From positions 1 through 64,000 of the IMG/VR virus record IMGVR_UViG_3300031885_000004: a stretch of DNA of 64,000 bases. One strand, written 5' to 3'. Positions 9,806-58,346 of this stretch are shown one piece after another. Position 1 is the first letter of the stretch. Each line of letters begins with the position of its first letter. The notes beneath the pieces were generated by a model. The model searched no databases. It was not told the origin of the DNA and saw nothing but the letters and a program-made list of their open reading frames with translations. This stretch comes from a virus. The position numbers and the translations under genes were made by a program.

Positions 9806-10147
9806 ATGAATTGCCTTAAAGAACTTTATGACCCAAATTTTGTGCCAGACGGGTGGCTAGAGCCAGGTGACCCAGTTCCATCACCGTTTGGAAGAAATAC
9901 CACGGTTACAGATTATTTTGTTGTGAAGTATGTTGGCGAAATAATGACACTATATGGCTATGGTGATGTTGTGGCAATAGATTATGGAGAAATACACAAC
10001 ATACGCGTTATTGGCGGCGGCAATGTGATTGCAAAAGGATGTCATATAATATTACAAGACATATGGTTAAGGGGTGGCGGATCAATCATACTCAATGGCT
10101 CATTCATAACATCAAGTAGAATTACTAATTTAGGAGGTGGAAAATGA
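9806..10147 (+). CDS. hypothetical protein
   Basis: 113-aa ORF with Gly-rich beta-repeat-like C-terminus. Confidence 0.55.
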   Translation: MNCLKELYDPNFVPDGWLEPGDPVPSPFGRNTTVTDYFVVKYVGEIMTLYGYGDVVAIDYGEIHNIRVIGGGNVIAKGCHIILQDIWLRGGGSIILNGSFITSSRITNLGGGK

Positions 10148-10184
10148 AACCCAAGCGAAAACGGAAAGAGCCCGGTAAACCTTT

Positions 10185-10257
10185 GGGGCGGTCACGAAGC
10201 GGCATCGTACTCGGCTTTTAACCGAGATAAGGTAGGGTTCGACTCCCACCCGCCCCA
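10185..10257 (+). tRNA. tRNA-Lys(TTT)
   Basis: ctcgg-ctTTTaa-ccgag; GTTCGA. Confidence 0.88.
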
Positions 10258-10268
10258 TTAAAGCACTT

Positions 10269-10354
10269 GCCCGAGTAGCCCAATTGGCTGGAGGCGCATG
10301 ATTCAAGATCATGAGGACGTAAGTCCCTTGCGGGTTCGACTCCCGCCTCGGGTA
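10269..10354 (+). tRNA. tRNA-Leu(CAA)
   Basis: catga-ttCAAga-tcatg; long variable arm. Confidence 0.9.
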
Positions 10355-10393
10355 TTAACCCTAATAGTCTGCCAGAACTCCAGGAAGAGCAAG

Positions 10394-10819
10394 ATGGATG
10401 AGGTTGAATTCAATAAATGGCTTGATGACCATGGAGTAAGGATGGTCGAAGAATTCGTCCATTTTGGCGAAAAACAAATATCGTTCATTTTCTGCGGTGT
10501 CCATAAATCTCGTGCGTCATTCAACCAAACCGCTATCGATGATCTGGAAAAATTCCATAATATTGATGCACGAGGAGAAACACGCCGCTTATGTAAGGAA
10601 TCATTGGAAGAAGAATTAGAAAAGGCTGCTATGCAATTTGTCACTACCGGCGATGCAGATAATTTCTTTAAGTATTTCAATTTTAAATATCTCGAGGATT
10701 TAGTTGGGAAATACCCCAAACTCATATATGATGTGGCAAACTATGAGAAATTTAAGCCTAAGGAAAAGCAAAAGGAAAAGCAAAATGGAGAAGATCAAAC
10801 ATTGCCCGCTCTGCCATAA
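10394..10819 (+). CDS. hypothetical protein with internal gp23-like segment
   Basis: SRASFNQTAIDDLEKFHNIDARGE resembles gp23 LKAxWTxELAQDLxxxHxxDAExE. Confidence 0.55.
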   Translation: MDEVEFNKWLDDHGVRMVEEFVHFGEKQISFIFCGVHKSRASFNQTAIDDLEKFHNIDARGETRRLCKESLEEELEKAAMQFVTTGDADNFFKYFNFKYLEDLVGKYPKLIYDVANYEKFKPKEKQKEKQNGEDQTLPALP

Positions 10820-11180
10820 GACATTAAAACACAAAGATGATTTCTATTCATGTAAGACAAAGGATTGTATGTTTGATGCAGAGGAAAATCCAGTATTCGG
10901 TCATTGGGGGGACGTATTTACTAACCCCGGCGATACTGAAGCGGATATGATTGACTCGGCGGGGCAATGCTTGAGATTTAGGGTTGGACCAGTCTTCGGC
11001 AAAGAAATTTTAAAATCACCAGGAATCTGGATTTCATATCAAGAAAAATACCAGAAAACTGAATTAAAAGGCGACTTTTTGATGTCAGCTGAAACATGGA
11101 AGGCGATCAAAAACCAAATAGATAAGAGGATTAAGACGTTTAACGCGAAAGCCTACTCATTTAAAATCAAAAAGAAGTAG
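10785..11180 (+). CDS. hypothetical protein with N-terminal zinc ribbon
   Basis: CPLC...CKTKDC. Confidence 0.55.
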   Translation: MEKIKHCPLCHKTLKHKDDFYSCKTKDCMFDAEENPVFGHWGDVFTNPGDTEADMIDSAGQCLRFRVGPVFGKEILKSPGIWISYQEKYQKTELKGDFLMSAETWKAIKNQIDKRIKTFNAKAYSFKIKKK

Positions 11181-11263
11181 CCCAGATGCTGGAATTGGCA
11201 GACAGCGTAGGCTCAGAACCTACGGCGAAATTTCGCACGGGAGTTCGACCCTCCCTCTGGGCA
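11180..11263 (+). tRNA. tRNA-Leu(CAG)
   Basis: gtagg-ctCAGaa-cctac; long variable arm. Confidence 0.9.
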
Positions 11264-11266
11264 TTA

Positions 11267-11491
11267 GCCTGGGTAGCTCAATGGCAGGATCCAAGGTCTA
11301 GCGGTAGAAACCGGCAGTTGGTGCAGTGGCCTTATATGCCACTAAACGCATGCTGGAATCGAGCAGAGACAAGGGTTCTGACGCACTCAGCGTATTGCTA
11401 GATCGCTTATACGATCTTACGCGGCTGAGTGAGGCTAGAGCGCTGGGTGTGAAACCCAGATATGGGGGTTCGAATCCCTCCCTTGGCTCCA
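11267..11491 (+). ncRNA. tRNA-like RNA 1 with ~150-nt structured D-loop insertion
   Basis: 5' gcctggg-tagctcaatggc; 3' agagc-anticodon-like arm-ggttcgaatcc-ccttggc-TCCA; insert has nested helices and a pseudoknot. Confidence 0.75.
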
Positions 11492-11495
11492 GAAT

Positions 11496-11726
11496 GCCGG
11501 GGTAGTTTAATTGGCGGAATTCAAAGCTTGAGTTGAAGATCTAGCGATTGAACTGAGCTTGGACAGGAATGTCGCCTGATTAGAGACTTGGGCAAGGATT
11601 CCGGCGCTCTCATAATGGCAAAACCAAAGATTGCGTCCAAGAGCAGTCAAGATTCTGCCGGTTGGGGGTGACTAAAACGCCAAGCTTGCTTGGAAATTGG
11701 TGGTTCAACTCCATCCCTCGGCGCCA
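11496..11726 (+). ncRNA. tRNA-like RNA 2 with ~150-nt structured D-loop insertion and no anticodon
   Basis: gccgggg/cctcggc acceptor with GCCA; D-stem gttt/aaac; T-arm ggttcaactcc; anticodon arm ccaag-cttg-cttgg has only a 4-nt loop. Confidence 0.75.
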
Positions 11727-11727
11727 A

Positions 11728-11946
11728 ATGAGTACCAGCGATAAAAACAAAGGATTCCTGACGATAGAAGAATATCTTGAATCCATCCGCATTGGGGTGC
11801 TCAATGATAATGATGGGTTCGGATATTTCGTGAAAATGAAGCATGGAAAGAAACAAAAAACAAGAGTTCAAGCGATTCCATCATTCGCCAATAGACAAGG
11901 AAATATCCCACGATGGGCCACACACGTAGTTTGGTACGAGAAATAA
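11728..11946 (+). CDS. hypothetical protein
   Basis: ATG 1 nt after the CCA; DNDGFGYF...WATHVVWYEK. Confidence 0.6.
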   Translation: MSTSDKNKGFLTIEEYLESIRIGVLNDNDGFGYFVKMKHGKKQKTRVQAIPSFANRQGNIPRWATHVVWYEK

Positions 11947-11947
11947 C

Positions 11948-12196
11948 ATGCTAGTAATTAAAGTCTTGGTTAACGATAAGGAAATTGATGAGATTGGAAT
12001 CATCAATACTGGTCACAGAAACTTAAATGGCGATAGTCTTTATAGGATTAGAAAGCCAGAGCATCTAAATCAACACGAGATTTACCATGATCGGCAAAAG
12101 CCATGGCACTTCCTAGTCGTAAAAGTATTAGAAGTAATTAATAAAGATTATATAGACAAAAATCTAGTAACGCACGAAATGGGCGAGGATAGATAA
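11948..12196 (+). CDS. hypothetical protein
   Basis: 82-aa ORF coupled to the upstream gene. Confidence 0.6.
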   Translation: MLVIKVLVNDKEIDEIGIINTGHRNLNGDSLYRIRKPEHLNQHEIYHDRQKPWHFLVVKVLEVINKDYIDKNLVTHEMGEDR

Positions 12197-12204
12197 AGCA
12201 GGTT

Positions 12205-12289
12205 GCGCGAGTGGTGTAATTGGCAGCCACGCCAGACTTAGGATCTGGTGCCGTAAGGCATGGGAGTTCGACTCTCCCCTCGCGCACCA
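12205..12289 (+). tRNA. tRNA-Leu(TAG)
   Basis: ccaga-ctTAGga-tctgg; long variable arm; CCA. Confidence 0.93.
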
Positions 12290-12290
12290 G

Positions 12291-12366
12291 GGGGGTCTCG
12301 CACAACGGTAGTGCACCTGCCTTATAAGCAGGCAAGGTCTGGGTTCGATTCCCAGGACCCCCACCA
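12291..12366 (+). tRNA. tRNA-Ile(TAT)
   Basis: cctgc-ctTATaa-gcagg; A73; CCA. Confidence 0.88.
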
Positions 12367-12561
12367 GTTTATTATGGAGACATTCATGATAAAGGCTCAG
12401 CGCCATTCTGATACAGAAGTGTCGATAGAGAAGAACGGCGTGAAAGTTGTCCTCGATTACGACGAAGCAATCAGCACAATAGCTATCTGGTGGGACACGC
12501 TTCGTGAGGACATGAACGTAGCAAATAAGGTTCAAGAATACAGGAAGAAATACACAACCAG

Positions 12562-19784: not shown

Positions 19785-19848
19785 CTCTCGATCTCCTTAC
19801 TTTCAGTATTTCAAATGCGTCCAACCTTCACTTTATATTTGCGTGAAA

Positions 19849-20385
19849 ATGCGCGTTTGTAATATATGCGGTACGACAGATGACAAGGTGCCGTTCTATA
19901 GGCACCTCAATAGATGTAGACCATGTGCACTTGAAATCATATCTGCGTATAACAAAAAGAGGAACCAAGATCAATCATATAAGAAAGCGAGAAGAGTAAG
20001 GTGGAGCCAATGGCGGTCAAGAAATAATGTCGAGCGCAAAACAAAGCCTAAATCAGCAGAAAAGAGATTTGTGGCAGAACTAGTATCATCAACAAAGAGA
20101 GTCTATATGAAAAAAGATGCCGAATTTGATGTGAGTTCGGAATTCTTTAACCAACTATTAAATGCGCAGAATGGGTTATGCGCATTAAGTGGTGTGCGGC
20201 TTGAAAAAGATCACTCATTATTAGGAGTAAGAATTGATAAGATAGACAACACAAAAGATTTCACAAAGGATAATACTCGCCTAATATGTGAAGGAATTAA
20301 GCGGCTAAAGAAAGATATGTCAGACGATGAAGTTAAGATATTTATTGGCGAACTGAAGCAAGTTATTATGATTAATTTACGATAA
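19849..20385 (+). CDS. degenerate HNH/endonuclease-like protein
   Basis: CNIC...CRPC; QNGLCALSG...IDKIDNTKDFTKDN. Confidence 0.6.
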   Translation: MRVCNICGTTDDKVPFYRHLNRCRPCALEIISAYNKKRNQDQSYKKARRVRWSQWRSRNNVERKTKPKSAEKRFVAELVSSTKRVYMKKDAEFDVSSEFFNQLLNAQNGLCALSGVRLEKDHSLLGVRIDKIDNTKDFTKDNTRLICEGIKRLKKDMSDDEVKIFIGELKQVIMINLR

Positions 20386-21355
20386 ACTGCGCGTTTCTGT
20401 ACTTATCGCTATATGGATCTTTAATTATACCGCTTTTTATGATGTGAATAATTTCTTTAATTCCATCATCGACATCAACGATGGTGTCAAACCCCGCACA
20501 TTTAATCTTAGCAAACGATACTGTTATGTCTCTCATGTCTCCGCCAAACGATAAGTCCTTGTATTCAACTTCAACATTAATTATAGACTTGATCTTGGTT
20601 ATAACTTGCTCTTTAGATAGATTATTTGAGTCTGATCCGACGTTATATATCTGACCATCGAATTTGTTAGATGGCCACTCGAGAACCATAGCTATGGCTC
20701 TAATAATATCAAATATGTGGCAAAATGATCTCCTATAGTCACGTTGATATATTGTTATCTTGCCTTTGGTTATTGCGTCCAATACAAATTGATTGATTAT
20801 GAGATCAAATCTGGTCCTTGGCGATGTGCCAAACAATGTGGCAAACCTAAATATTAGTGGTTTGCATATGTCATCCTTATGGTCTAGTAAGAATCTCTCC
20901 GCTTCAATTTTGGTTTCCGCGTAGAGTGATTGCGGGTTTAATGGCGACTCCTCAGTCACTGGCGAGTTATCTAATGATAACCCATAATTGCTATATGTGG
21001 ATGCGAATATGATCCTTGGCACCATTGACTCGCAAGCAGCCCCATAAACTCTCTTTGTACCATCAACATTATATGCTCTTGCAACTTGGCTACCAACCTG
21101 TTGGCAAATCGGGAAGCCAACTAGAGCCGCTAGATGGATAACTACATCGGCATCTGAGAAGGCTGAGGCTAAATCTGCTTCGAGAATATCTTCAGCTATC
21201 ATGTTGAATCTACTGCCGAAGCACACGTAAGGCAGCATGTGCTCGCCGCCAAACATCATTTTGTCTATAATCGTAACATCATGACCAGCACATAACAGAA
21301 ACCCAGTAAGTTTAGATCCAATGTATCCAGCTCCACCAGTTATAACTATATTCAT
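20372..21355 (-). CDS. NAD-dependent nucleotide-sugar epimerase/dehydratase
   Basis: TGGAGYIG; HLAA; YAETK (YxxxK). Confidence 0.92.
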   Translation of the reverse strand: MNIVITGGAGYIGSKLTGFLLCAGHDVTIIDKMMFGGEHMLPYVCFGSRFNMIAEDILEADLASAFSDADVVIHLAALVGFPICQQVGSQVARAYNVDGTKRVYGAACESMVPRIIFASTYSNYGLSLDNSPVTEESPLNPQSLYAETKIEAERFLLDHKDDICKPLIFRFATLFGTSPRTRFDLIINQFVLDAITKGKITIYQRDYRRSFCHIFDIIRAIAMVLEWPSNKFDGQIYNVGSDSNNLSKEQVITKIKSIINVEVEYKDLSFGGDMRDITVSFAKIKCAGFDTIVDVDDGIKEIIHIIKSGIIKDPYSDKYRNAQFIVN

Positions 21356-21364
21356 GATATAATC

Positions 21365-22615
21365 CTATCCGCAAACAATCATTTCATCTAATTGTGCGCC
21401 GGTCCCAACATATATTAGCTCGGCTTTAGTTTCACGCAAGACTGGGATTATATTTTCATCGGCCCACATCGCGAATTTGTTAGTTACAATGTTGTTTTGG
21501 TGTGGGCGCATTAAAGATCCAGTTAGCCTGCCATGTTTACCAGTCATTTCATAGTCAACATAATTTGCAAAATTAACCGATATAAATGTCTTCCCAAGCG
21601 TCGAGTTATACCTAATAGCTTGTATTAGATTCTCTTTACTAAATGTAAAGACTCTCCTTGGTAACTTGGTCACTGATGTCATTTCGATTATTGGTATTGG
21701 CGATCCGCTAGATTTCGTAACATCATCCCACGATATTTCCCTTTGGTCGCCATAACCAGGTCCAGAGTCACCGTGATATATCGTGACTTTCCTACCAGTT
21801 TGATTATATCTCTGCGTTTCTTCCCAGGTTAAATGCTTCCCAGATTCGTCAAGATACTTATTGCTATTAATTCTGATTGGGAATGTCCTGCAATTAAGAA
21901 CCACATTACCGGCATATCTGACAGGAAGCATCATATCATCAAACCCAGCAGCCACAGTAACATTCCTAGATGTACAATGCGGGTACATCGGTCCCATTAG
22001 ACTTAACTGAAACCCCTGTGCTATCTCAAGAAGGCCAGACTGACCACGGTCGAGCCTGGCCATTATCTCTTCCGATGTGTCGCAAATAAATTCTTTGAGT
22101 GATTCAATATTCTTGGCAATCAGCACGTCGTCGCGTCTTAATACTCTCCTCGCCCTACATGCTCCAACTCCGTGACAGGTCGATCCAGCCTTCATTGTTC
22201 CTTCGTGCTTGGTCGGCTTGCCATCAAAGTCGACTTCGCCTCTCTCGAATGCAGAGTCTTTATCTTGAATTATGGTGGCAAGGGGGTGCATCCCTAAGCG
22301 TTTGGGTTTAATGTTGTTCTCTTCGATCTCCCTGAAGAATGCCTTAAGTTCTATTGACGATCCTGGTCCAATATACATCTTTTCATATTGGTCTAAATAC
22401 GCGCAACTGTTAAGTGTTTGGTAGAAATAAGCCTTCCCAGGAAATCTAACCCAGTGACCTGCTTGAGCCGAAAAAGCGTTACAGCAGAATTGCCAGTTGT
22501 CGGCGTATTCGCACATGAACGAAGCAACCTTGCCTTTGCCAGAGCTCCCGGCGCTTGCGTCCATACAGATCGTCAACTTGCCTGGCTCAAAAACTTTATT
22601 TGTGTCGAAGCGCAT
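21365..22615 (-). CDS. purZ: adenylosuccinate synthase homologue with PurZ-type residues
   Basis: GSSGKGK (Ser at the PurA Asp13 position), EIAQGFQL, YPHCTSR, TSVTKLPRRV, NFAN; start MRFDTN after AAAGGAG. Confidence 0.72.
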   Translation of the reverse strand: MRFDTNKVFEPGKLTICMDASAGSSGKGKVASFMCEYADNWQFCCNAFSAQAGHWVRFPGKAYFYQTLNSCAYLDQYEKMYIGPGSSIELKAFFREIEENNIKPKRLGMHPLATIIQDKDSAFERGEVDFDGKPTKHEGTMKAGSTCHGVGACRARRVLRRDDVLIAKNIESLKEFICDTSEEIMARLDRGQSGLLEIAQGFQLSLMGPMYPHCTSRNVTVAAGFDDMMLPVRYAGNVVLNCRTFPIRINSNKYLDESGKHLTWEETQRYNQTGRKVTIYHGDSGPGYGDQREISWDDVTKSSGSPIPIIEMTSVTKLPRRVFTFSKENLIQAIRYNSTLGKTFISVNFANYVDYEMTGKHGRLTGSLMRPHQNNIVTNKFAMWADENIIPVLRETKAELIYVGTGAQLDEMIVCG

Positions 22616-22628
22616 GATATCTCCTTTA

Positions 22629-23309
22629 TCACTTAGCGGCATTAACCGCTTTGGCTGCCAATTCACCGGTTATGTGGAGGGCTTGTTGTAGTGTTACATC
22701 AAACACTAGTCTATTGTCGATTTTTAGTAGCTCATCAATCATGGTCGCGTCTATATTACCAGACACCTTTAGTGGTCTAGCTGTCATGCTTCGAATTCTC
22801 TCGATAGCTATTGCATGTTCTTTGGCCCCAACATTAGGGATAACAAGGTGCTGATCAATTCTAATCATGTGTGGTGGATATTTGTCGCATGATTTGGTGA
22901 AATTGTCGATTTCTTCTTTGGTTCTTGTATAATACCCGAACACATACCTAAGTTCAATAAGAGGATTAACCCTTCTCATTAATTCACCAATAGCTTTGAC
23001 CTCATTAGATGTTTCGATTTGAGTTTTTTTACTGGTCAGTAATATATCAATGCCCTCAACCCGAAGGGTCATTGGGTTGATCGTCTTAAGCTTATCTGTT
23101 GCGAAATTCTTCCCGTCTGGAAAGTCAATGGCTGCTATTAATTTAAACTGCCCTCCTTTGGTCGATCTGTCGGTTAACATCATTGGGGTAAATTCTGGAG
23201 CAATAACAACAGCTGGGCATCTATATTTCACGGCAAAATTGGTGACTGCATTGTGATCGACGTCTGGTTTTAACATGTTGATTTCTAGGTGTGATGTAAT
23301 ATTAAACAT
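22629..23309 (-). CDS. divergent DeoC-like (deoxyribose-phosphate aldolase) TIM barrel
   Basis: LKPD, AIDFPDG, IDI, LKVSG pattern; the Schiff-base Lys position appears to be Arg. Confidence 0.6.
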   Translation of the reverse strand: MFNITSHLEINMLKPDVDHNAVTNFAVKYRCPAVVIAPEFTPMMLTDRSTKGGQFKLIAAIDFPDGKNFATDKLKTINPMTLRVEGIDILLTSKKTQIETSNEVKAIGELMRRVNPLIELRYVFGYYTRTKEEIDNFTKSCDKYPPHMIRIDQHLVIPNVGAKEHAIAIERIRSMTARPLKVSGNIDATMIDELLKIDNRLVFDVTLQQALHITGELAAKAVNAAK

Positions 23310-23925
23310 TGTTTCCTCCGTTCATTCGCTCTAGATCTTCTCGACGCCACGTTAGGAAAATCCATTTGACTGGGTCTAGTTTAATTAACCCTTTATCTAT
23401 CTTTAAAACATGCTTTAATAGACTATCCCAGTCTTTGAAGAAAACGTTGCTATAATCATCGGCTGTTGATGCCGCGCCCAATATCCATGTTGAAGGAATT
23501 CCGTCTGGGCAACAAAACAACACTGGTTTGCCTTCATATATGGCGTCGTATACCTCCTCACAAGTCCCAAAAGTTGGTTTGATTGGCAAATAGCATATAA
23601 CCCAATCCACAGCACTAACAATTCTCAAGCATACTTTACGCATATAAGCATTAGCCGTGAATACATCGCGCACATTGATGGTGGTGAAGTTGTCCTCACC
23701 ACATATTGTCTTAGCAATTGCGGGGCCGTCCCGCAGAACCTCCCTATACACAGCAGGATTAATGCGACATGATGATGGGAACCATTTTGGCTTGATTAAT
23801 GGATCATATACTTTTATCCCAATCGCCGATAATTTAATGGCCAGCTCGTTTCTCCAAGAGCTGGCCATTAAATCGTGTTCAACTGGCCCTGCAAGATAGC
23901 AGGTGGTGTTGTGTAGTATGCTCAT
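23302..23925 (-). CDS. nucleoside 2-deoxyribosyltransferase / nucleotide N-hydrolase-like protein
   Basis: YLAGP...WR...YDP...GTCEEV...KPV. Confidence 0.72.
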   Translation of the reverse strand: MSILHNTTCYLAGPVEHDLMASSWRNELAIKLSAIGIKVYDPLIKPKWFPSSCRINPAVYREVLRDGPAIAKTICGEDNFTTINVRDVFTANAYMRKVCLRIVSAVDWVICYLPIKPTFGTCEEVYDAIYEGKPVLFCCPDGIPSTWILGAASTADDYSNVFFKDWDSLLKHVLKIDKGLIKLDPVKWIFLTWRREDLERMNGGNNV

Positions 23926-23956: not shown

Positions 23957-24451
23957 CTACTTACTTTTCTTTCCCTTCTTACCACCACCAAGGTTGTAGA
24001 TCGCAAGCGCCTTCTGCTTTACCTTTGGCGTGGTCTTGGAACTATCAATCGTCTTCTTAAGTTCTGTCCTAGAAATTTTTTGACCCTTCTTCTTGCCCAA
24101 TGCTTTCCTAAGTGACCCCTTGGTCCCGCCCTTAGATGGCGGCTTATCTGCCTTCTTCAGCGCCGTCTGGCCCCATTTCTTGGCTTCCATAAGAAATGGG
24201 TTCATCCCAAAACCACGGCCAAAAACAACACTTGGCCTTGCTATGGCTCCCTCGGAAATGCTTTTTACAAACCCGCTTTTCGGCTGTGGTAGTTTAGAAA
24301 CTGACTTTCCACGATTAATGCCAGCGGGCTTCGGCTTAGTAAATCCTGGGCCAAGCGTTACCATCCCATATTTTACGCCACCACCATGGCCTCCTTTGGC
24401 GGATGTTTTGGTCTGCTGACCCATTCTTGGTGAATTGGTTTTCTTTGCCAT
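23957..24451 (-). CDS. very basic Lys/Gly-rich protein
   Basis: AGGAGG RBS; 164 aa. Confidence 0.7.
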   Translation of the reverse strand: MAKKTNSPRMGQQTKTSAKGGHGGGVKYGMVTLGPGFTKPKPAGINRGKSVSKLPQPKSGFVKSISEGAIARPSVVFGRGFGMNPFLMEAKKWGQTALKKADKPPSKGGTKGSLRKALGKKKGQKISRTELKKTIDSSKTTPKVKQKALAIYNLGGGKKGKKSK

Positions 24452-24472: not shown

Positions 24473-25489
24473 TTATTTTTGCGCCTCAGTTTCCTTTTTG
24501 GTCAACAGTTCATTGGCTCGATTCAAAATAACATCTACCGCTCCAATTTGATCTAAATTTTCAAAGCTCGAGACAAATTTAAACTTATTGTGTGATGAGC
24601 AGAATGTAAATCTCGCTAACTCCTCTGGCTTAAGGGTGCTAATAGCATAATCGTAATGCTCAGCTTCTTTTTCAAATCGTTTAATTCTATTCTCATTTGA
24701 TACGTCTGGATTCTGTCCATACCTGTGCAATTTGCCATCAACTGCACTCATGTCACATCCGAATATATATGATTTTTCATACCCCATCCACAATGCGACT
24801 TGCATCGAGGCGTACGTCGTTGATCGCCCAATATGGAATCCTCTAGTTAGGTCGCGTGAGAACCCCTTACCAGCCATCGTCTTAACCATAATTTGATTTG
24901 GATGTGTGGCCCTAACCGAAGATGCGTTAATAATTGTTCCTTGGTAGCTAGACCAAAATTCTTGATTTCTATTGTATTGTGATTGATCACAGAATATCCA
25001 ATATTTGCTTGGCCAGACTCTTAACTCTGGTTTATTGATGCACATAATGTCTATTTTAACGTGCCCAAGCAACTTATCAAGAGGAGCTTGATTGATAGAT
25101 GGCCCACATGCTAAGATAACCAAAATTCTGCTATGCCCAATCCCTCGTAGGTTTCTTATCTTATCTAAGTGCTTCCCGAGAAGCGCGTCCTGTGCTTTAC
25201 GAAGATGACTTGGGCGCACCTGAGTTAGGGTTCTCTCTTTTGTCTTAGGTCTTATTATTGAAACTTGATTTGGTATCACAGACGATCTTGGTTTGGTGAT
25301 GGTTGGCGCCAATGATGACTTTGGCGGCGTTCTTATAATGACGTGCTGCTGCGGTTTTACTGCTGGCACCCTATTATAAACTGTAGGTATTTTGACAGCT
25401 CCCTTTGGATGTAGTGAAATTGATTGTGATATGGACGATACTTTTATAATTCTGACTGGTTTGAATATTGGATTAACTTTTAAATTCAT
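24473..25489 (-). CDS. DUF115/MAF-like glycosyltransferase-fold protein
   Basis: ILACGPSIN...WMGYEKSYIFGCDM. Confidence 0.65.
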   Translation of the reverse strand: MNLKVNPIFKPVRIIKVSSISQSISLHPKGAVKIPTVYNRVPAVKPQQHVIIRTPPKSSLAPTITKPRSSVIPNQVSIIRPKTKERTLTQVRPSHLRKAQDALLGKHLDKIRNLRGIGHSRILVILACGPSINQAPLDKLLGHVKIDIMCINKPELRVWPSKYWIFCDQSQYNRNQEFWSSYQGTIINASSVRATHPNQIMVKTMAGKGFSRDLTRGFHIGRSTTYASMQVALWMGYEKSYIFGCDMSAVDGKLHRYGQNPDVSNENRIKRFEKEAEHYDYAISTLKPEELARFTFCSSHNKFKFVSSFENLDQIGAVDVILNRANELLTKKETEAQK

Positions 25490-25511
25490 ATCATATATAT
25501 TTTTGAATATG

Positions 25512-25949
25512 TTATGTGATGACAGTCTTGTCAATAGTTGACAGAGAGCCCCAGATATGATTTAATTGCGTCGATGACAGCTGATCTTTGATGTCCACGT
25601 TGGATAAAGCTCTTTTTGCGTATTTAATTATGGCTGTCTTTCTGCGGGCGTCTCTGTTCTTTAAGCTGTATAAATGTCTGAAGATAGTCGTGGTTAGTAA
25701 ATTGAATACTGGTGCTCTATCATCAAACGTGAGTCTACCGTCTTTAATCTTATCCATGGTCAAAATAAATGCTTCGTGTGCTAGATCGGCGTGCTCTTCT
25801 TCATCTTTTGGTCTGAATTTAGTTGATATTCCGATACAGATCTTATAAACCTGTTGCTGGAGCCCTTCCCACGCGCTATCACATTTTTCTATTTTCCATT
25901 TAGACCAATTTCGTTCGATTTCTTCTGAAGATACATAATTCATAATCAT
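25512..25949 (-). CDS. sigma-70 region 2-like protein
   Basis: EHADLAHEAFI...FNLLTTTIFR. Confidence 0.55.
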   Translation of the reverse strand: MIMNYVSSEEIERNWSKWKIEKCDSAWEGLQQQVYKICIGISTKFRPKDEEEHADLAHEAFILTMDKIKDGRLTFDDRAPVFNLLTTTIFRHLYSLKNRDARRKTAIIKYAKRALSNVDIKDQLSSTQLNHIWGSLSTIDKTVIT

Positions 25950-42722: not shown

Positions 42723-44135
42723 ATGGAAGATGTCAGAACACCAGACGCAATAGATGATATAGAGATTAAATATCCAGGACCAAAAGATTTGGTGCATCTG
42801 CACTCACATACTATATTTTCAGCTCTTGATGGTATTGCATCACCAGAAGATTATATGAAAAGGTGCGGAGAACTTGGTATGTCAGCTATTGCCATAACCG
42901 ATCATGGGTGTCTTGCATCTTTCCCAGACGCTTATTTTGCGGCCAAAACATATAAGATAAAATTCATACCAGGATGTGAGATATATTATAATGATCACCA
43001 CAATGAACTACAGGAATTCCAAAAAAGTGGTAATAAATGGTCATCTTTGAAATTGTTGGACCTAGAAAAATATGAATTATTACGCAGGCATAGACACGTA
43101 ACTGTTTTGTCTAAAAACCAAGTTGGGTATAAAAATTTAATCCATATGACTACCAATGCATGGGAAATTGGCCATTATTATAAACCAAGAATCTGGATGG
43201 ATATACTTGATAGCCATAAAGACGGGCTAATTATTCTTAGTGGGTGTATGAATGGTCCGGTATGTCACGAGATAAGGGCAGCACACGAATTAACCATTAA
43301 AGGCCAAAATTCGGAAGCAAGTAGGCATTTAGAGATGGCCAGACAGTGGTTAAATGATATGCGCGAAATATTTGGGAAGGACCTATATATTGAAATGCAA
43401 ATGCCGGGTAAAGACCTTGACGGGTCAATCCAAGCTTTCGCGACATGCGCGAGATGGTCTGATGAATTTGGCATAAAAGCCGTCATAACTAATGATTGCC
43501 ATTATATTCACAGACAAGACTTTGATGTTCAAAAATGCATGATGGCGGTTGACCAAAAAAAGACATTAGATGATCCTGAGCTATTCACCACCAATTCAAG
43601 CGAGCAATATTTTAAGAGCAGATCGCATCTTAGGGCTATATTCCACGAGCATGGCTATAATGCAGATGTTAGTCAGGCTAAATTTGAAGAAATTTGCGAT
43701 AACACTGTTGAAGCTGCAGAAAAATGCGATGGGTTTAAACCAGACCTATCACCAAAATTACCAGCCATTAAAAACGCTAGTGATAAACTAACAGTTTTAG
43801 TATTAAATGCTCTCAAGGATAAGGAGTTATATAATAGCCAGAAGAAATATGAAGTTGATGGAAAGATGGTCACCCATAAAGAGCAAGCCCTGATAGAATT
43901 AAGTCGGATCATCTCGAAAGGCTTCGCGCCATACTTTTTAGTGATTCGAGATTTAATACAATATTCTATTAATAGTGGATGGGATGTTGGTCCTGCCAGA
44001 GGTAGCGCTGGCGGATCATTGGTTTGTTTTCTAATCGGGATCCACGAGCTTGATCCATTAAAGTGGCACCTATCATTTAATAGGTTCATGTCGCCGTCTC
44101 GAGGCGGCAACATGCTGAAAGTATCAATGGAATAA
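42723..44135 (+). CDS. dnaE: DNA polymerase III alpha, N-terminal part (PHP domain)
   Basis: HLHSHT, AITDHG, YYKPRI, TNDCHY, GPARGSAGGSLV, LSFNRF. Confidence 0.92.
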   Translation: MEDVRTPDAIDDIEIKYPGPKDLVHLHSHTIFSALDGIASPEDYMKRCGELGMSAIAITDHGCLASFPDAYFAAKTYKIKFIPGCEIYYNDHHNELQEFQKSGNKWSSLKLLDLEKYELLRRHRHVTVLSKNQVGYKNLIHMTTNAWEIGHYYKPRIWMDILDSHKDGLIILSGCMNGPVCHEIRAAHELTIKGQNSEASRHLEMARQWLNDMREIFGKDLYIEMQMPGKDLDGSIQAFATCARWSDEFGIKAVITNDCHYIHRQDFDVQKCMMAVDQKKTLDDPELFTTNSSEQYFKSRSHLRAIFHEHGYNADVSQAKFEEICDNTVEAAEKCDGFKPDLSPKLPAIKNASDKLTVLVLNALKDKELYNSQKKYEVDGKMVTHKEQALIELSRIISKGFAPYFLVIRDLIQYSINSGWDVGPARGSAGGSLVCFLIGIHELDPLKWHLSFNRFMSPSRGGNMLKVSME

Positions 44136-44907: not shown

Positions 44908-45267
44908 ATGAAAATTGAGACTGGTGGGATAGTCAGTAAAAAGACTGGGTCGAAGTTCGCTGTTATAATTAAGATAGGTAGTGAAATTAGATCGTATGTG
45001 CATGAAGTCAAATCAGATTCGACACTTAATTATGTTGAATTATTGGCGGTTAAATTTGCTTTACTTGGTTCGAATGTTACACCAATAATAATTTCAACAC
45101 CAAACGTCTATGTATGTGATATCTTAAGGCATGAGGGCGATAATTGGCTAAAACTGCCAAAATCAAATAAAGAACTAGTAGATGAAATCAGAAAGCTTAT
45201 AATAGAAAAGAATGCATCAATAACGTTCGAAAGAAACGAAGAAATTAGGAAACTGTGTAGCTCATGA
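44908..45267 (+). CDS. degenerate RNase H-like protein
   Basis: TLNYVELLAV and NKEL resemble RNase HI TNNxxELxA and NxDL. Confidence 0.55.
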   Translation: MKIETGGIVSKKTGSKFAVIIKIGSEIRSYVHEVKSDSTLNYVELLAVKFALLGSNVTPIIISTPNVYVCDILRHEGDNWLKLPKSNKELVDEIRKLIIEKNASITFERNEEIRKLCSS

Positions 45268-48200
45268 CGTGGAAGGAACTGAAAAGATTGGCGGCCAACA
45301 CCCTCGCCACGAGGTTTAAGGGTAGAACTACAGAATATACCGGAAGGTTAAGATATGAATTAGACCAAATAGAGTTACAGGGTGCTGAGGATTATTGGAT
45401 TGACCTATATGATAGTAAAAGAACGTTCGACACCAACCATAATGGGTTGGTATTTCCACTGCTTCTTGGGATAACCAGCATCAACCCAATAGAACGCAGC
45501 ATACCACATAATATTGTATATCAACCAGATTATCCAGACATTGATACTGACTTCCTACCGATAGCACGCGATCATATTAAAAAATATGCATCAAAACAAT
45601 ATGGTGAGGATCGCGTATGTAGTGTTGGGTTGTGGCAGACATATAAACCAAAGTTGGCGATAACAGACGTGTGTAGGGTAATGAAGATTGACCCAACAGA
45701 AGCGCAGAGGCTTACTAAAGAACTACCAGATGAATTCGACGATATGGATTTTGAAGCGGCATGTAATGCCTACCCGAATTTTAAGACATTTGCGGACAAT
45801 AACGACAGCGTAATCAAAATGTCGTATAGGCTAGTGAAATTAATTAGGTCCCAAGGAAGACATGCAGGTGGGTTAATAATATCAAGCGTACCAGTACGTG
45901 ATTATATTCCTCTTACTAAAAGCCCATCTGGACCAAAAGGGCAATGGACATCGGCGTGGACGGAAGGCAAAAGCACTCAACTGTCAAAATTTGGATTTAT
46001 AAAATTTGACATACTTGGCTTAACCAACCTTTTGCATATATGGATATGCAAACAGTTTATAAAGAAAAATCGCGGAGTTATAATCGATTGGGGCGATATG
46101 GACCCCGAGGTTGATAGGGCCGGGTGGGAAATATTGCCGGATGGCACCAAGAGCGCCATAAGTTTTAAGGACGACCTAGCGTTAGATATGGCCGATAAGA
46201 GAAGAGTAGAGACCATATTCCAATTTGAAACAGATCTCGCTAAAAGCATAATCCAAAAGGGGCATGGTGTAAAAAGTTTCTATGACATGGTTATTTATAC
46301 GTCTCTTGGTAGACCAGGACCTTTACCGCTGGTCAACGATTATGTTGCAAGAAGAGACGCCAAAAATGATGATTGGAAAACCAAAGAGGACCCTAAAATA
46401 GTAGAAATTTTATCAGACACTTACGGGATTATAGTTTTTCAGGAGCAACTAAGCAAGTTCTTCATCAAAATATGTGGATTCACAGTACCAGAAGCCGAAG
46501 CCGCGAGAAAGGCTGTAGCTAAGAAGTGGGCCGATCAACTAAAAAAGATCAAAGACAAGATGATTGCTGGGGCTACCAAAACAATCGGGCACGATAAGGC
46601 GGTTGAGTGGTGGGGTAAAATAGAGTCATTTGCTAGATATTGCTTCAATGCCTGCCTAGACGGCGACACGACCATTGTCAATCCAATAACATTAGAAAGG
46701 ACGACGATAGAACAATTATATCTAAATCCAAAGCCGTTCAAGCTGTTGTCATTTAATAATGGTGAACTAGTAGCCGACGATGTGGTCAATATACACTACA
46801 ATGGCATGCTGCCAATATATCAAGTTATGTTTAGTAATGGGCTTACGCAGAACGTGACTATTGGCCATAAATTTATGAATGTTTATGGCAACATGGAAAC
46901 TGTTAAGTCTCTCTTGAAGACCGGTCATGCAATCAAATATATAAGTGATAGCATGACTGGAGGAGAATATGTTTCACAAGCTAAATCTGCAAATAGAGAA
47001 AGAAGTGGTAAGGATGTACCAGGAGGGTGCATCATACAAAGAAATAAAAAACGACATAAGAGCATTTTCATCGGACGGAACGATAAGGAGAATAATAAAA
47101 AAGCATGGCGTACAGAGATCATTTATAACTCAAGCATCCAACAGTGTGAACCATTATTACTTTTCGAAGATAGATTCGCCAGAAAAGGCATATTGGATCG
47201 GGATGTTGATAGCAGATGGGTACGTTCACAACGGGAGGGGATATGTAAGTTTGCAGCTCAATTCGAAAGATCAATTGCTGGTGGAGCAATTTGGCCAAGA
47301 TATAAAAACACCAAGGAAGATGGTAATCTGCAAGAAACAGCGTGCTGGTCCGCAATCGAGGATATCAGCCAGCAGCAGGATGTTATTAGCGGACCTAAGC
47401 AAATATGGTGTGATTCAGGGAAAAGAAGGACGGGAGATAATGCCACGCATGCGGTTTATTTCCCATCTTCTGAGAGGGCTTATGGATGGAGACGGAACGA
47501 TTATCGTAAATGGCAAGGGATATCCTATGGTAAAATTTTGCGGATCTCCGAAAGTAGTAAAAGGATTCAGGGACGCGATAATCAAGCACTGCAGGGTAAG
47601 AGTGAGCAAGATAACAGAATATTCAGAGAGGATGAACGCTGTGGCGTGGTCTGGCCTAAAACAGTGCAAACCGATCCTGAGATATCTCTACAGGGGGGCA
47701 ACGAGATTCTTGGTAAGGAAGCAAATCGTAGCGGATGCTATATTAAGAGCATCAGATATATCGGAGTTAAGAGGACATATTCGCCAGAGATGAGATCTAT
47801 TCAGCACAATTACATAACCTCACCACAGGATGGTCAACCAATACAAGCAAATTCACATGCAATGGCTTATATAGTTATTACATTTAGGTGTTTGTGGTTG
47901 AAAGCCCACTATCCAACAGAATGGTGGGCATCGGTCATGACGAATTGCAAACGCGAAAAGTTGGTTAAGTATATGGGAATCGCTAGATCTGAGGGAGTGA
48001 AATTCGGCTCCCTTGACTACAACCAGCTTAGCCAGACTTTCTCGGTCAGCGGGGATACAATTACTTTGGGGTTAGAAAGCATTAAAGGCATTGGCGATAA
48101 AGCTGCATTAAAAGCGCAAGGCGACCGCGATTGCACCAGTTTTGATGAATTTGTGTCACAAGCATCGAAGAACAAAATAATATTTGAGCGGTTAATTAAA

Positions 48201-48851
48201 CTCGGCGCATTTGATAAATTACACCCAAATAGGAAAGCATTATGGAACTGGTATCTTTATAAATATGGATCTGGGAATGACACCAAGATCGTTAAAGAAG
48301 AAGTGGCGGCCAAATTAGCGTGGAGCGATGAGAATATTGCTAAAGAGAGGCTGAGACAGACTAAAGAATTTCTAGCCAATTATCCTAGGAAAAAGAAGAT
48401 ACCAGCTCATATAGAAAAATGGAAACCGAAAAACAATCCGACAATCCAACAATTCGAAGAAATGTTCGGAGATTTTTCATATGAGGAAAGGCTAAAATTT
48501 GAAAAGGAATATCTTGGATATTATTGGAGCTCGCCTCTTGGTATATATAATTGCGCCAACCAAACTATAGATGATGCTAGATCTACTGGGATTCTTGAGG
48601 CGGTGATTGATAGCATTGATACTAGGAGAGGCAAAAACGGAGCATTTAAACAATTAAATGTCACAGATGGTATTGAAATTGCCAAAGTAATGGTGTGGCC
48701 CGATGAACTTGCTATCAATGACGAGAATATATTCAAGGAAGGCATGGGAGTTAGAATGAGAGTATCTTGGAAAGAAGAATATTTGAGCTTTAACGTTAGA
48801 TCAGGCTCAATTGTATTGCCACTGGAGAAGAAGAATGCTGCTCCAATCTAA
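45264..48851 (+). CDS. dnaE: DNA polymerase III alpha, catalytic part, intein-containing
   Basis: PDIDTDF, HAGG, KFDILGL, RPGP, TYGIIVFQEQ, YCFNA|intein|SHAMAY, WLKAHYP. Confidence 0.93.
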   Translation: MTWKELKRLAANTLATRFKGRTTEYTGRLRYELDQIELQGAEDYWIDLYDSKRTFDTNHNGLVFPLLLGITSINPIERSIPHNIVYQPDYPDIDTDFLPIARDHIKKYASKQYGEDRVCSVGLWQTYKPKLAITDVCRVMKIDPTEAQRLTKELPDEFDDMDFEAACNAYPNFKTFADNNDSVIKMSYRLVKLIRSQGRHAGGLIISSVPVRDYIPLTKSPSGPKGQWTSAWTEGKSTQLSKFGFIKFDILGLTNLLHIWICKQFIKKNRGVIIDWGDMDPEVDRAGWEILPDGTKSAISFKDDLALDMADKRRVETIFQFETDLAKSIIQKGHGVKSFYDMVIYTSLGRPGPLPLVNDYVARRDAKNDDWKTKEDPKIVEILSDTYGIIVFQEQLSKFFIKICGFTVPEAEAARKAVAKKWADQLKKIKDKMIAGATKTIGHDKAVEWWGKIESFARYCFNACLDGDTTIVNPITLERTTIEQLYLNPKPFKLLSFNNGELVADDVVNIHYNGMLPIYQVMFSNGLTQNVTIGHKFMNVYGNMETVKSLLKTGHAIKYISDSMTGGEYVSQAKSANRERSGKDVPGGCIIQRNKKRHKSIFIGRNDKENNKKAWRTEIIYNSSIQQCEPLLLFEDRFARKGILDRDVDSRWVRSQREGICKFAAQFERSIAGGAIWPRYKNTKEDGNLQETACWSAIEDISQQQDVISGPKQIWCDSGKRRTGDNATHAVYFPSSERAYGWRRNDYRKWQGISYGKILRISESSKRIQGRDNQALQGKSEQDNRIFREDERCGVVWPKTVQTDPEISLQGGNEILGKEANRSGCYIKSIRYIGVKRTYSPEMRSIQHNYITSPQDGQPIQANSHAMAYIVITFRCLWLKAHYPTEWWASVMTNCKREKLVKYMGIARSEGVKFGSLDYNQLSQTFSVSGDTITLGLESIKGIGDKAALKAQGDRDCTSFDEFVSQASKNKIIFERLIKLGAFDKLHPNRKALWNWYLYKYGSGNDTKIVKEEVAAKLAWSDENIAKERLRQTKEFLANYPRKKKIPAHIEKWKPKNNPTIQQFEEMFGDFSYEERLKFEKEYLGYYWSSPLGIYNCANQTIDDARSTGILEAVIDSIDTRRGKNGAFKQLNVTDGIEIAKVMVWPDELAINDENIFKEGMGVRMRVSWKEEYLSFNVRSGSIVLPLEKKNAAPI
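46653..47852 (+). mobile_element. intein (400 aa) in DnaE
   Basis: Starts CLDGDT, block B VTIGHKF, ends HNY...IQAN followed by Ser; removal restores YCFNASHAMAY. Confidence 0.88.
46969..47793 (+). CDS. LAGLIDADG homing endonuclease nested in the +1 frame of the intein
   Basis: AYWIGMLIADG and LRGLMDGDG motifs; GGAGGAG RBS before the ATG. Confidence 0.85.
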   Translation: MFHKLNLQIEKEVVRMYQEGASYKEIKNDIRAFSSDGTIRRIIKKHGVQRSFITQASNSVNHYYFSKIDSPEKAYWIGMLIADGYVHNGRGYVSLQLNSKDQLLVEQFGQDIKTPRKMVICKKQRAGPQSRISASSRMLLADLSKYGVIQGKEGREIMPRMRFISHLLRGLMDGDGTIIVNGKGYPMVKFCGSPKVVKGFRDAIIKHCRVRVSKITEYSERMNAVAWSGLKQCKPILRYLYRGATRFLVRKQIVADAILRASDISELRGHIRQR

Positions 48852-56859: not shown

Positions 56860-57237
56860 ATGCCAAGATATAATTACGCATGCCAGAGTGGTTGCAAATT
56901 GTCAGATGTCAAGAGTGAGCTAAAAGACGTTGTGATAATTGTGGCCAAATCTGGTAGGCTGATCTGGGAAGAAGCACACAGTATTAAAATCACACCTTCT
57001 ATTAAATGCCCTCTATGCAGAGGCGCGGCATCAATAACACTTGAGGGGGTGCTTGCGCCTGTATCTTATATAAGAGGTTACGGCTATCTCGACAAAGCTG
57101 GGTGCAGACGGAACATGAACTTGCACAAGTTGACAACAGATGATCCGTATGCACACATGCGAGAACGAGGAGAGGCAGACGACCTCAAGTGTCGGCTTAA
57201 AAAGGGTAAAACACCAGTCAAGAAGTATTTCGCATAA
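56860..57237 (+). CDS. FmdB-like zinc ribbon protein
   Basis: MPRYNYAC...CPLC. Confidence 0.65.
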   Translation: MPRYNYACQSGCKLSDVKSELKDVVIIVAKSGRLIWEEAHSIKITPSIKCPLCRGAASITLEGVLAPVSYIRGYGYLDKAGCRRNMNLHKLTTDDPYAHMRERGEADDLKCRLKKGKTPVKKYFA

Positions 57238-58346
57238 TGTTATTATTAACAGCCTTCGACTACACAAAATATCCATATAAACCGTTATTGTCGTTACTTA
57301 AAATTGGCGACAGGACGGAAATTTTTTATTTATATGCCAAAGGGTCCAACCGGAAGATATACGATGTAACCTCTGACATATTTGCTATTGGGAATATCGT
57401 GGACTCATCGCAGGAACCAGTGTACCTTAATGACGCTAAATCGCATATAATTGCATTTAATTTACGAAATAATCATAATCTATACCAACTAACAGCCGCC
57501 ATACCCACACTAAGCAACAATAGATATATAGAGCTATTTAATTCAATTGCTTTAGTTGACCTTAAACCAGATAGATGGAGGAACCTACTCGGCGCCAGTT
57601 CCTCCACATACATATCAATGGAAAGGAAGCCGATATTTCTCGATGAAATAAAAGTACAACCGATCTACGCACTTGATACTTATACTGGTAGATCTAGGTG
57701 TCATAACTATAACATCCAAGGTGCTCCGGAAGACACTCCAATCAGAACGGAAGATGCAGATAACTTATTCATATGCTGCGATTGGATGGCTGCAGAAATT
57801 AGGGCTGCAGCCTTACTGTCTCATGATGAATTGTTAAATGAAAGTTTTATAAAATCAGATCCACATACGATGTTATCGGAGGAGCTTGGTATTCCAAGAG
57901 ATGAATGCAAACGCCTATATATGCGCACGATTTATTCTATTGATCTTGATTCCCCAATCTTGGAAATATATCCAAAGTTAAAAGAGTGGATGCAGAATCA
58001 GCTAAACGCGCTGGAAAGGGATGGCTCTTTATGCTCGCCTCTTGGTCGAAAATTTAAATTGGGTAGTCGTGACACCAAAAGCGTATTTAATGCGGTATTG
58101 CAAGGGACGGTTGCCCACGCGATGCAATCATCATTAATAAAATTGTCTGATAAATTAAAAGCATATATGCTCACTGAAACACATGACTCAATCATATTCT
58201 CTTGTAGATCAGGGCTTGTGCCGCACGTAATAAAAGAAGCAACACAGGTGATGTTAAGACCATTGACTGAAATGGATACGTTCCCTCTTAGAGTTTATGT
58301 TGGGCGTCAATGGAAGAAGTGGAAACTATATAGGGAATATAGATGA
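57237..58346 (+). CDS. compact family A DNA polymerase domain
   Basis: TGR, motif A DWMAAEIR, motif B RDECK...IY, NAVLQG, motif C THDSII. Confidence 0.78.
   Translation: MLLLTAFDYTKYPYKPLLSLLKIGDRTEIFYLYAKGSNRKIYDVTSDIFAIGNIVDSSQEPVYLNDAKSHIIAFNLRNNHNLYQLTAAIPTLSNNRYIELFNSIALVDLKPDRWRNLLGASSSTYISMERKPIFLDEIKVQPIYALDTYTGRSRCHNYNIQGAPEDTPIRTEDADNLFICCDWMAAEIRAAALLSHDELLNESFIKSDPHTMLSEELGIPRDECKRLYMRTIYSIDLDSPILEIYPKLKEWMQNQLNALERDGSLCSPLGRKFKLGSRDTKSVFNAVLQGTVAHAMQSSLIKLSDKLKAYMLTETHDSIIFSCRSGLVPHVIKEATQVMLRPLTEMDTFPLRVYVGRQWKKWKLYREYR

Follow-up and report, generated by a model that had tools for sequence, protein, structure and literature searches.

We analysed a 64,000-nucleotide stretch of viral DNA (positions 1 to 64,000 of IMG/VR record IMGVR_UViG_3300031885_000004; hereafter the window), which makes up the opening part of a viral contig of 81.5 kb, estimated by CheckV to represent 22% of a genome. 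The element of interest is a group of three adjacent genes on the minus strand: a long-form PurZ-type synthase (21365..22615, 416 residues), a DeoC-like TIM barrel with the deoxyribose-phosphate aldolase (DERA) fold and without a Schiff-base lysine (22629..23309, 226 residues), and an NDT-superfamily protein that is a candidate deoxynucleoside monophosphate (dNMP) N-glycosidase acting on dAMP (23302..23925, 207 residues). An original prediction, made from the letters alone, had placed all three open reading frames (ORFs) at these positions and on this strand, and had proposed that they constitute an alternative pathway to DNA containing 2-aminoadenine (Z). Its observation is confirmed by our analysis and its interpretation is partly supported: we consider it probable that the three genes act together as a module that edits nucleotide pools in a giant phage replicating with DnaE. 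As had been noted, DnaE is indeed encoded in the window, split into a PHP domain and a Pol III alpha part over 42723-44135 and 45264-48851, and the phage gene content also includes SbcCD, DnaB and SSB. The likeliest start of the synthase is the ATG at 22615, with AAGGAG lying 7 nucleotides before it and the stop of the DeoC-like gene 13 nucleotides before it; the open frame extends up to a GTG at 22666, and the public gene call is 416 residues long. The stretch is present in 14 sediment-metagenome runs, always as contigs, and no RNA run is listed with it.

Signature residues and folds of the three proteins

We compared the synthase with several profile and structure databases. It belongs to PF00709 (E = 9e-17) and matches the PHROG annotated as PurZ (phrog_1211, E = 2e-33), while its NCBIfam scores were 146 bits for PurZ, 125 bits for archaeal-type PurA and 71 bits for bacterial PurA, all under the curated cut-offs. 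Its matches in the PDB were PurZ of phage phiVC8 (E = 3e-23), Pyrococcus PurA (2e-20) and PurZ of phage S-2L (4e-19). Its family falls into at least 565 clusters when grouped at 90% identity and occurs on contigs as long as 370 kb; the members are 37-70% identical to the synthase. We then aligned this family with E. coli PurA, two PurA-type proteins and thirteen PurZ/PurZ0 proteins. The three motifs that the original prediction had singled out are present and occupy the PurA positions claimed for them: in the alignment with E. coli PurA, GSSGKG puts a serine at Asp13, TKLPRR puts a leucine at Arg303, and NFAN takes the position of Thr330-Lys331-Leu332-Asp333. These motifs are invariant across 27 to 34 family members; specifically, the serine (S14 of VpPurZ) replaces the catalytic aspartate of PurA in the synthase and in 34 of 34 members.

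The metaGPA preprint (10.1101/2025.10.22.683976) lists, in phiVC8 numbering, the positions that discriminate best between PurZ and PurA on dZ-enriched contigs; among them are F295 and Y298, for the adenine of ATP, together with W252, Y244, S273, P233 and G256. We found that Ser24, Thr313, Trp296, Tyr288, Phe349 and Tyr352 of the synthase are equivalent to VpPurZ S14, T262, W252, Y244, F295 and Y298, respectively, and that S14, P233, Y244, W252, T262, K266, F295 and N297 are kept in all 34 family members. The position of S273 is threonine or serine within the family and that of G256 is mostly threonine. The pocket of the synthase is of the ATP type (NFANY), with the phenylalanine and asparagine conserved in 34/34 members and the tyrosine (Y298) in 29/34, and its aspartate/IMP loop (TSVTKLPRRVFTFS) is nearly identical to the corresponding loop of S-2L PurZ (TTVTKLPRRIFTFS).

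A phylogeny inferred with IQ-TREE from 46 sequences and 404 columns, and rooted with E. coli PurA and the PurA of a 735-kb phage, recovered the synthase family as a single clade (support 100/100) that is sister to six classical PurZ proteins (100/95). Next outward branched Bacillus phage vB_BpsS-140 and then PurZ0, meaning that the family lies inside PurZ0. This comparison with PurA, PurZ and PurZ0, which had been suggested as a check, thus groups the family with classical PurZ and not with E. coli-type PurA. Given these signature residues and this placement, the synthase is, as judged from its sequence, a long-form member of the PurZ group, i.e., of the PurZ type rather than the PurA type, which is how it had been read originally. 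With the classical PurZ/DatZ/MazZ systems (cyanophage S-2L, Vibrio phage phiVC8, Acinetobacter phage SH-Ab 15497) it shares the serine at PurA Asp13, the TSR[DN] motif, the TVTK(L/K)xRR loop and the ATP-type NF(A/C)NY. By contrast, DatZ (HD) and MazZ/DUF550, which characterise those systems, are absent beside the synthase and in a 91%-complete relative, and the window phage has DnaE instead of DpoZ or PrimPol and a genome several times larger.

When searched alone, the NDT-like protein of the window matched PF15891 with E = 0.0026. Within its family, PF15891 was matched by 18 of 19 members and PF05014 by 16 of 19 (best E = 1e-8), while the family profile gave weak NDT matches only against the PDB (E = 0.3-0.5). 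We used its AlphaFold model (predicted local distance difference test score, pLDDT, of 89) as a Foldseek query, and the significant matches were solely structures of the NDT superfamily (NDTs, MilB, DNPH1, YtoQ). Tyr10, Glu16 and Glu124, the last within a G-T-x-x-E motif, are invariant in the family. An NDT-superfamily enzyme likewise adjoins the synthase in the PurZ0/DutZ/DmtZ system of actinophages Ghobes and Wayne, in which DmtZ cleaves the N-glycosidic bond of dAMP specifically and also passes deoxyribose 5-phosphate on to Z, and for which DutZ has been published too (Poubanne et al., NAR 2026, PMC12884076). The nucleophile of DmtZ is a glutamate with a tyrosine partner, and its Asp12, the mutation of which kills activity, is proposed to bond the 6-amino group of adenine (PMC12884076). 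In an hhalign comparison, Tyr10, Glu16 and Glu124 fall on Tyr6, Asp12 and the catalytic glutamate of Wayne DmtZ, with a weak E of 0.013 and with the middle part of the protein unaligned, including the region of the third triad residue Asn77. Glu16, six residues after Tyr10, thus lines up, as an acidic residue, with DmtZ Asp12.

In nucleoside transferases, an aspartate six positions before the catalytic glutamate serves the 5'-OH. The residue six before Glu124 is Thr118, and an invariant Ser145 follows strand 5; in our own reading of the motifs, both stand where hydrolases of the superfamily (Rcl/DNPH1) presumably bind the 5'-phosphate. These small, uncharged residues, which the protein has in common with DNPH1/Rcl and MilB along with the fold, would fit a substrate carrying a 5'-phosphate. 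Unlike those hydrolases, the NDT-like protein has extra helices at residues 45-85, a C-terminal extension, and Glu16 in place of an arginine that is said in the DmtZ paper to be common in such enzymes (PMC12884076). We regard it as a candidate dNMP N-glycosidase, most likely acting on dAMP. The original prediction had recognised an NDT-like neighbour, which holds, as the Tyr/Glu catalytic core is intact and its features fit a dNMP N-glycosidase. It had also suggested that dAMP is depleted by N-glycosidic hydrolysis, which is reasonable because the catalytic Tyr and Glu and the acidic residue at the DmtZ Asp12 position are kept; the idea that such a route is new does not stand, since DmtZ does the same in PurZ0 phages (PMC12884076). 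The logic proposed here is that of the DmtZ system, with dAMP removed as free adenine and deoxyribose 5-phosphate.

The AlphaFold model of the barrel (pLDDT 95) had DERA or DERA-derived designs as its top 50 Foldseek matches (E down to ~1e-11, template modelling (TM) score 0.77), and a structure search of the atlas also returned DERA (TM 0.81). By sequence, Pfam (with PF01791 as the family expected of an aldolase) matched 0 of 19 members and neither phmmer nor hmmsearch found a match in the PDB; the sole sequence match was TIGR00126 (E = 0.017, residues 18-88, 14.6 bits vs. a cut-off of 117), and an hhalign comparison with E. coli DeoC aligned the FPxG region alone (E = 0.098). We therefore mapped catalytic positions from the FPxG anchor after strand 3, the strand order of the model and the spacing in E. 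coli DeoC, which is a coarser correspondence than a residue-level structural alignment. In this mapping, DeoC Asp102, Lys137, Lys167 (which forms the Schiff base, on strand 6) and Lys201 correspond to Asp88, Arg121, Arg150 and Lys181 of the barrel.

An exhaustive profile search revealed a self-contained barrel family of 235 representative clusters (at E of 1e-3 or better), of which 143 were tabulated. Position 150 is arginine in 133 of these, lysine in 9 and asparagine in 1; Arg121 is found in 135 and Lys181 in 133, and position 88 is acidic in all. The family furthermore has its own conserved Lys73 (143/143) and Glu103 (141/143), and its phosphate loops retain S-G-N and S/T motifs. Overall, the barrel resembles DERA/DeoC in its TIM fold, the FPxG loop, the acidic residue at Asp102, the lysine at Lys201 and the phosphate-loop motifs, whereas it differs in the arginine at the Lys137 position, in Lys73 and Glu103, and above all in the arginine at the Lys167 position, found in 93% of the family. 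Because arginine occupies the Schiff-base position both here and in 133/143 clusters, the barrel is, on the evidence of this conservation, a selected, enzyme-like DERA derivative and no canonical class I aldolase. The DeoC-like nature of the original prediction is thereby borne out at the level of the fold, and its suggestion that an aldolase handles the sugar phosphate is not, given Arg150.

Gene linkage and co-occurrence in related phages

The three genes belong to a minus-strand string running from 25949 to 20372, in which all genes are co-directional and intergenic gaps range from -23 to +31 nucleotides. The order is an unassigned 145-residue ORF, an MptE-like gene, a Lys/Gly-rich 164-residue ORF, the NDT-like gene, the DeoC-like gene, the synthase and a sugar epimerase, with an 8-nucleotide overlap between the NDT-like and DeoC-like genes. 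Scanning for promoter and terminator consensus sequences gave no excess over the shuffled expectation. We searched for related loci in IMG/VR, where a single-protein query found one relative and an alignment-based query found 16, together with one scan of GTDB genomes. The order sbcD, sbcC, two unknown genes, 145-residue ORF, MptE-like, NDT-like, barrel and PurZ recurred in about 10 contigs whose PurZ is 54-68% identical to the synthase; in one related contig, PurZ is inverted relative to the NDT-like/barrel pair. Deaminase genes occur around PurZ in a set of relatives comprising L008 (3809-4267), L009, L012, L015 and L023 (1429-2058): a dCMP deaminase (PF00383, E = 4e-24) has been inserted, along with a small Zn-ribbon ORF, in the interval separating barrel and PurZ, and in one relative a dCTP-deaminase-like gene (PF22769, E = 7e-26) lies 1.5 kb downstream. 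Copies of a homing-endonuclease gene separate the MptE-like gene from the NDT-like gene in L006 and L009.

We next tabulated gene co-occurrence in 18 PurZ-bearing records (G000-G017, including Flavobacterium phage MaF61), most of which are 7-46% complete. The barrel was present in 11 of them and the NDT-like gene in 10 of those 11, so that the pair occurs in 10 to 11 of the 11 records of this PurZ sub-clade. A PurB-like Lyase_1 protein, for which the best NCBIfam models are adenylosuccinate lyase, showed the opposite distribution: it was found in none of the 11 barrel records and in 5 of the 7 barrel-less ones, with the remaining 2 being fragments that carry neither (Fisher p = 0.0025). On the PurZ tree this exclusion needs only ~2 changes, which, given also that most records are fragments, means that the Fisher statistic overstates independence. 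The absence of any record combining the NDT/barrel pair with a phage PurB-like lyase is a new finding of this analysis. In the five related phages without the pair, the PurB-like lyase lies 7-24 kb from the synthase, and the pattern supports a chemistry with a succino-intermediate for the family.

Two further loci have other layouts. In L039, a 441-kb contig binned as a Pirellulales metagenome-assembled genome, a long-form PurZ (9992-12561, 54% identical) is cut near residue 297 by ~1.2 kb containing a transposase-like ORF, of ISAs1 type by eye, and the NDT-like and barrel genes are absent within 10 kb. In L011 (4245-11858), from a smaller phage, a long-form PurZ directly follows a full-length PolA (997 residues) and a sigma-like ORF; by eye, it precedes a thymidylate/dNMP-kinase-like ORF, with a ThyX-like gene upstream and a PurB-like gene 11 kb away, a layout that recalls classical Z clusters.

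The original prediction had stated that neither DatZ nor MazZ is recognisable in the window, and this extends well beyond it. Pfam searches of the entire 81.5-kb contig found no match to HD, YfbR-like, HD_3, MazG, DUF550 or dUTPase, and the same searches found neither the DatZ nor the MazZ family in the 91%-complete relative (G001, 246.7 kb). With only about a fifth of the genome represented by the contig, the lack of datZ and mazZ there proves little, and the nearly complete relative is the better evidence. In the latter, the searches matched only an HD protein of the SpoT type (E = 9e-4), an all-alpha ORF weakly resembling DUF550 (E = 0.004), and a Dut of the ordinary kind, fused behind an HNH-like half. 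The weak HD protein was considered as a DatZ candidate and rejected, as it reads by eye as a SpoT/RelA-type protein, and a MazG-like ORF of the same genome has homologues in 0 of the 17 other records. A dUTPase-like ORF located 1.5 kb downstream of PurZ in another record (G003) was likewise considered as DutZ; it is dCTP-deaminase-like (PF22769, E = 7e-26) and hence not DutZ.

Several neighbouring features of the window complete the picture. The MptE-like protein (24473..25534, minus strand, 353 residues) is a conserved upstream neighbour that precedes the NDT-like gene in 10 related loci. Its C-terminal ~230 residues form an MptE-like/DUF115 domain behind a basic, Pro/Lys-rich N-terminal tail of ~120 residues; it matches PF01973 (E = 0.01), phrog_4603 (annotated as sialyltransferase, E = 2e-5) and viral MptE-like clusters of the atlas (0.94), while its profile matched nothing in the PDB. 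Its membership of the module is uncertain. The Lys/Gly-rich ORF between the MptE-like and NDT-like genes (23957-24451, minus strand) has no family matches and is common only to the closest relative. Downstream, an NAD-dependent sugar epimerase/dehydratase (20372..21355, minus strand; PF01370, E = 4e-35, with matches to GalE- and LegB-like models) begins 9 nucleotides after the synthase; among the loci examined it otherwise occurs only in the closest relative (L002/L003), and it is probably outside the module. It abuts, on the opposite strand, an endonuclease VII/HNH-like homing-endonuclease gene (19843-20385, plus strand; phrog_1035, E = 9e-15). Elsewhere in the window, a 369-residue protein (57237-58346, plus strand) corresponds only to the C-terminal part of a family-A DNA polymerase (PF00476 positions 226-380, E = 5e-11) and has been conserved on five related contigs from this group of phages, which replicate with DnaE.

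A proposed nucleotide-pool editing module and its alternatives

From the folds, conserved residues, phylogenetic placement, gene linkage and co-occurrence observed above, we infer a scheme whose substrates, Z in DNA and a step from dATP to dAMP go beyond those observations, and which we nevertheless consider probable as a whole. The synthase would act as a functional PurZ, joining aspartate to dGMP at the expense of ATP or dATP and so yielding N6-succino-2-amino-dAMP. An adenylosuccinate lyase (the host PurB in this lineage, and the phages' own copy in related smaller phages) would then release dZMP, which kinases would take up to dZTP. In parallel, the NDT-like enzyme, acting as DmtZ or DNPH1 do, would split off the base of a purine deoxynucleoside monophosphate, most probably dAMP, thereby draining adenine nucleotides and freeing deoxyribose 5-phosphate. 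The barrel, predicted to be translationally coupled to the NDT-like gene and to descend from deoxyribose-phosphate aldolase, appears to keep the phosphate-binding side of DERA without its Schiff-base lysine, and would most likely bind or process the sugar phosphate or a nucleotide through a different chemistry. Under this scheme, Z-DNA in this phage is plausible.

A bolder version can be put forward tentatively, and we think it possible but doubtful. According to it, giant DnaE phages would make Z-DNA, or a related purine-substituted DNA, without any dATPase, by using a dNMP N-glycosidase and a re-engineered DERA barrel (with arginine for the Schiff-base lysine and its own Lys73 and Glu103) as a unit. 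The barrel would perform a new reaction on deoxyribose 5-phosphate or on a succinylated nucleotide, and the pair would be a functional alternative to the phage PurB.

Several observations weigh against the module as proposed. The synthase is only ~25-30% identical to classical PurZ and ~70 residues longer, the extra residues being distributed over three insertions or extensions; it carries alanine at the position of VpPurZ F12 (as do 26/34 family members, with phenylalanine in 8/34), and its 146 bits fall below the 300-bit cut-off of the NCBIfam PurZ model (NF038379). The tree contains no archaeal PurA, and long stems and branches meet in it. The NDT-like protein exceeds DmtZ by ~60 residues and contains an insert, and no close relationship to DmtZ is demonstrable, as the hhalign comparisons gave E = 0.013 with Wayne DmtZ and 0.25 with the candidate DmtZ of Gordonia phage Archimedes. 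The main gap is that no recognisable enzyme converting dATP to dAMP or to dA accompanies the module, either in the phage's own contig or in the 91%-complete relative. MaF61, an isolate with a complete genome, carries the synthase and a PurB-like lyase with neither the NDT-like gene nor the barrel, and the paper describing it is silent on the chemistry of its DNA. Finally, the region from sbcCD to PurZ is wholly syntenic among related phages, meaning that the adjacency of the genes is partly an inherited backbone. Gene adjacency by itself thus says little about a functional connection; more telling are the 8 nucleotides shared by the NDT-like and barrel genes and the fact that the two occur, or are missing, together.

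This synteny bears directly on one alternative, in which PurZ is real and the pair has no role in Z synthesis, being instead a separate salvage or counter-defence unit (e.g., one that destroys a deoxynucleotide alarm signal) placed there by conserved genome order in related jumbo phages. The insertion of dCMP deaminases, Zn-ribbon ORFs and homing endonucleases between these genes in relatives is consistent with such a view, as is the fact that MaF61 and four other records carry PurZ without the pair. A bacterial defence triggered by m6-dAMP has moreover been reported (10.64898/2026.01.15.699771). Nevertheless, an NDT-family dAMP hydrolase has been shown experimentally to be a helper of PurZ0 (PMC12884076), NDT genes and domains are statistically enriched on dZ contigs according to metaGPA (10.1101/2025.10.22.683976), and the pair is near-constant in this PurZ sub-clade. 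We thus consider a separate unit unlikely.

The absence of any visible dATP-destroying enzyme could also be explained if the module made Z only partially, or made a further-modified purine, with the MptE-like protein (and, in this phage, also the epimerase) adding a group to the base or to DNA. The DUF115/MptE-like gene always lies just upstream, the LegB-like epimerase lies just downstream here, and divergent relatives have the synthase among genes that look by eye like methyltransferases and glycosyltransferases. However, the protein matches the MptE family only weakly (Pfam E = 0.01), outside this phage the epimerase is found only in the closest relative, and nothing ties either protein to nucleotides, which makes this explanation improbable.

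The co-occurrence data invite another reading, namely that the barrel of DERA descent, in which two arginines are conserved, stands in for PurB by removing fumarate from succino-dZMP or by acting in some other way on the succinylated nucleotide. The mutual exclusion of barrel and PurB-like lyase (11 vs. 5 of the 18 records) would suit such a replacement, the 91%-complete barrel-bearing relative has no Lyase_1 gene, and the family-wide E9, D62, K73, D/E88, E103, R121, R150 and K181 resemble an active site for an anionic ligand. On the other hand, the exclusion follows the phage backbone with ~2 changes on the tree, most of the records are highly incomplete, and coupling ties the barrel to the NDT-like enzyme, which is predicted to yield deoxyribose 5-phosphate. 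We know of no precedent for such a lyase in the DERA fold. Classical Z phages, furthermore, use the host PurB (10.1101/2025.10.22.683976). Considering this, we find a replacement of PurB quite improbable. Finally, we judge it very improbable that the synthase is an auxiliary PurA that boosts AMP production from IMP together with a host or phage PurB, next to unrelated salvage genes: its PF00709 membership, its score under the curated PurZ cut-off and the PurB-like lyases paired with it in relatives (PurA and PurB being also the IMP-to-AMP pair) would suit such a role, but the catalytic Asp13 is serine in every family member, the GTP-specifying TKLD is replaced by the ATP-type NFxNY, Arg303 is leucine, and the family groups with PurZ and not with E. 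coli-type PurA.

Relation to known Z systems and implications

The module as we propose it would differ from the PurZ0 systems in several ways. The window synthase lies on the PurZ side of the tree, and there is no DutZ partner or fusion here, its place being taken by the coupled DERA-fold barrel. No such barrel is reported for the actinophages, for which E. coli DeoC was used as an assay reagent only (PMC12884076). A DERA-like partner, DnaE phages and jumbo phages are all unmentioned in that paper and in the metaGPA preprint (PMC12884076 and 10.1101/2025.10.22.683976). Our literature searches found no work pairing PurZ with jumbo, huge or giant phages, and none combining deoxyribose-phosphate aldolase, bacteriophage and 2-deoxyribosyltransferase. 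NDT-type removal of dAMP is thus known with PurZ0, and the helper set suggested here, a DmtZ-like enzyme with a lysine-less DERA barrel, is partly known.

The coupled NDT/barrel pair is a candidate for new nucleotide-pool chemistry built on a DERA scaffold without the Schiff-base lysine. MaF61, although it has no such pair, is the only isolate of the wider clade and hence a cultured entry point to it. To our knowledge, Z-DNA has so far been documented only in small sipho- and podophages with few defined helper sets. If our reading is correct, a Pol III-type replicase would be able to copy Z-DNA, and the PurZ clade of big phages, with its hundreds of clusters and contigs of up to ~370 kb, would greatly widen the expected range of Z genomes.

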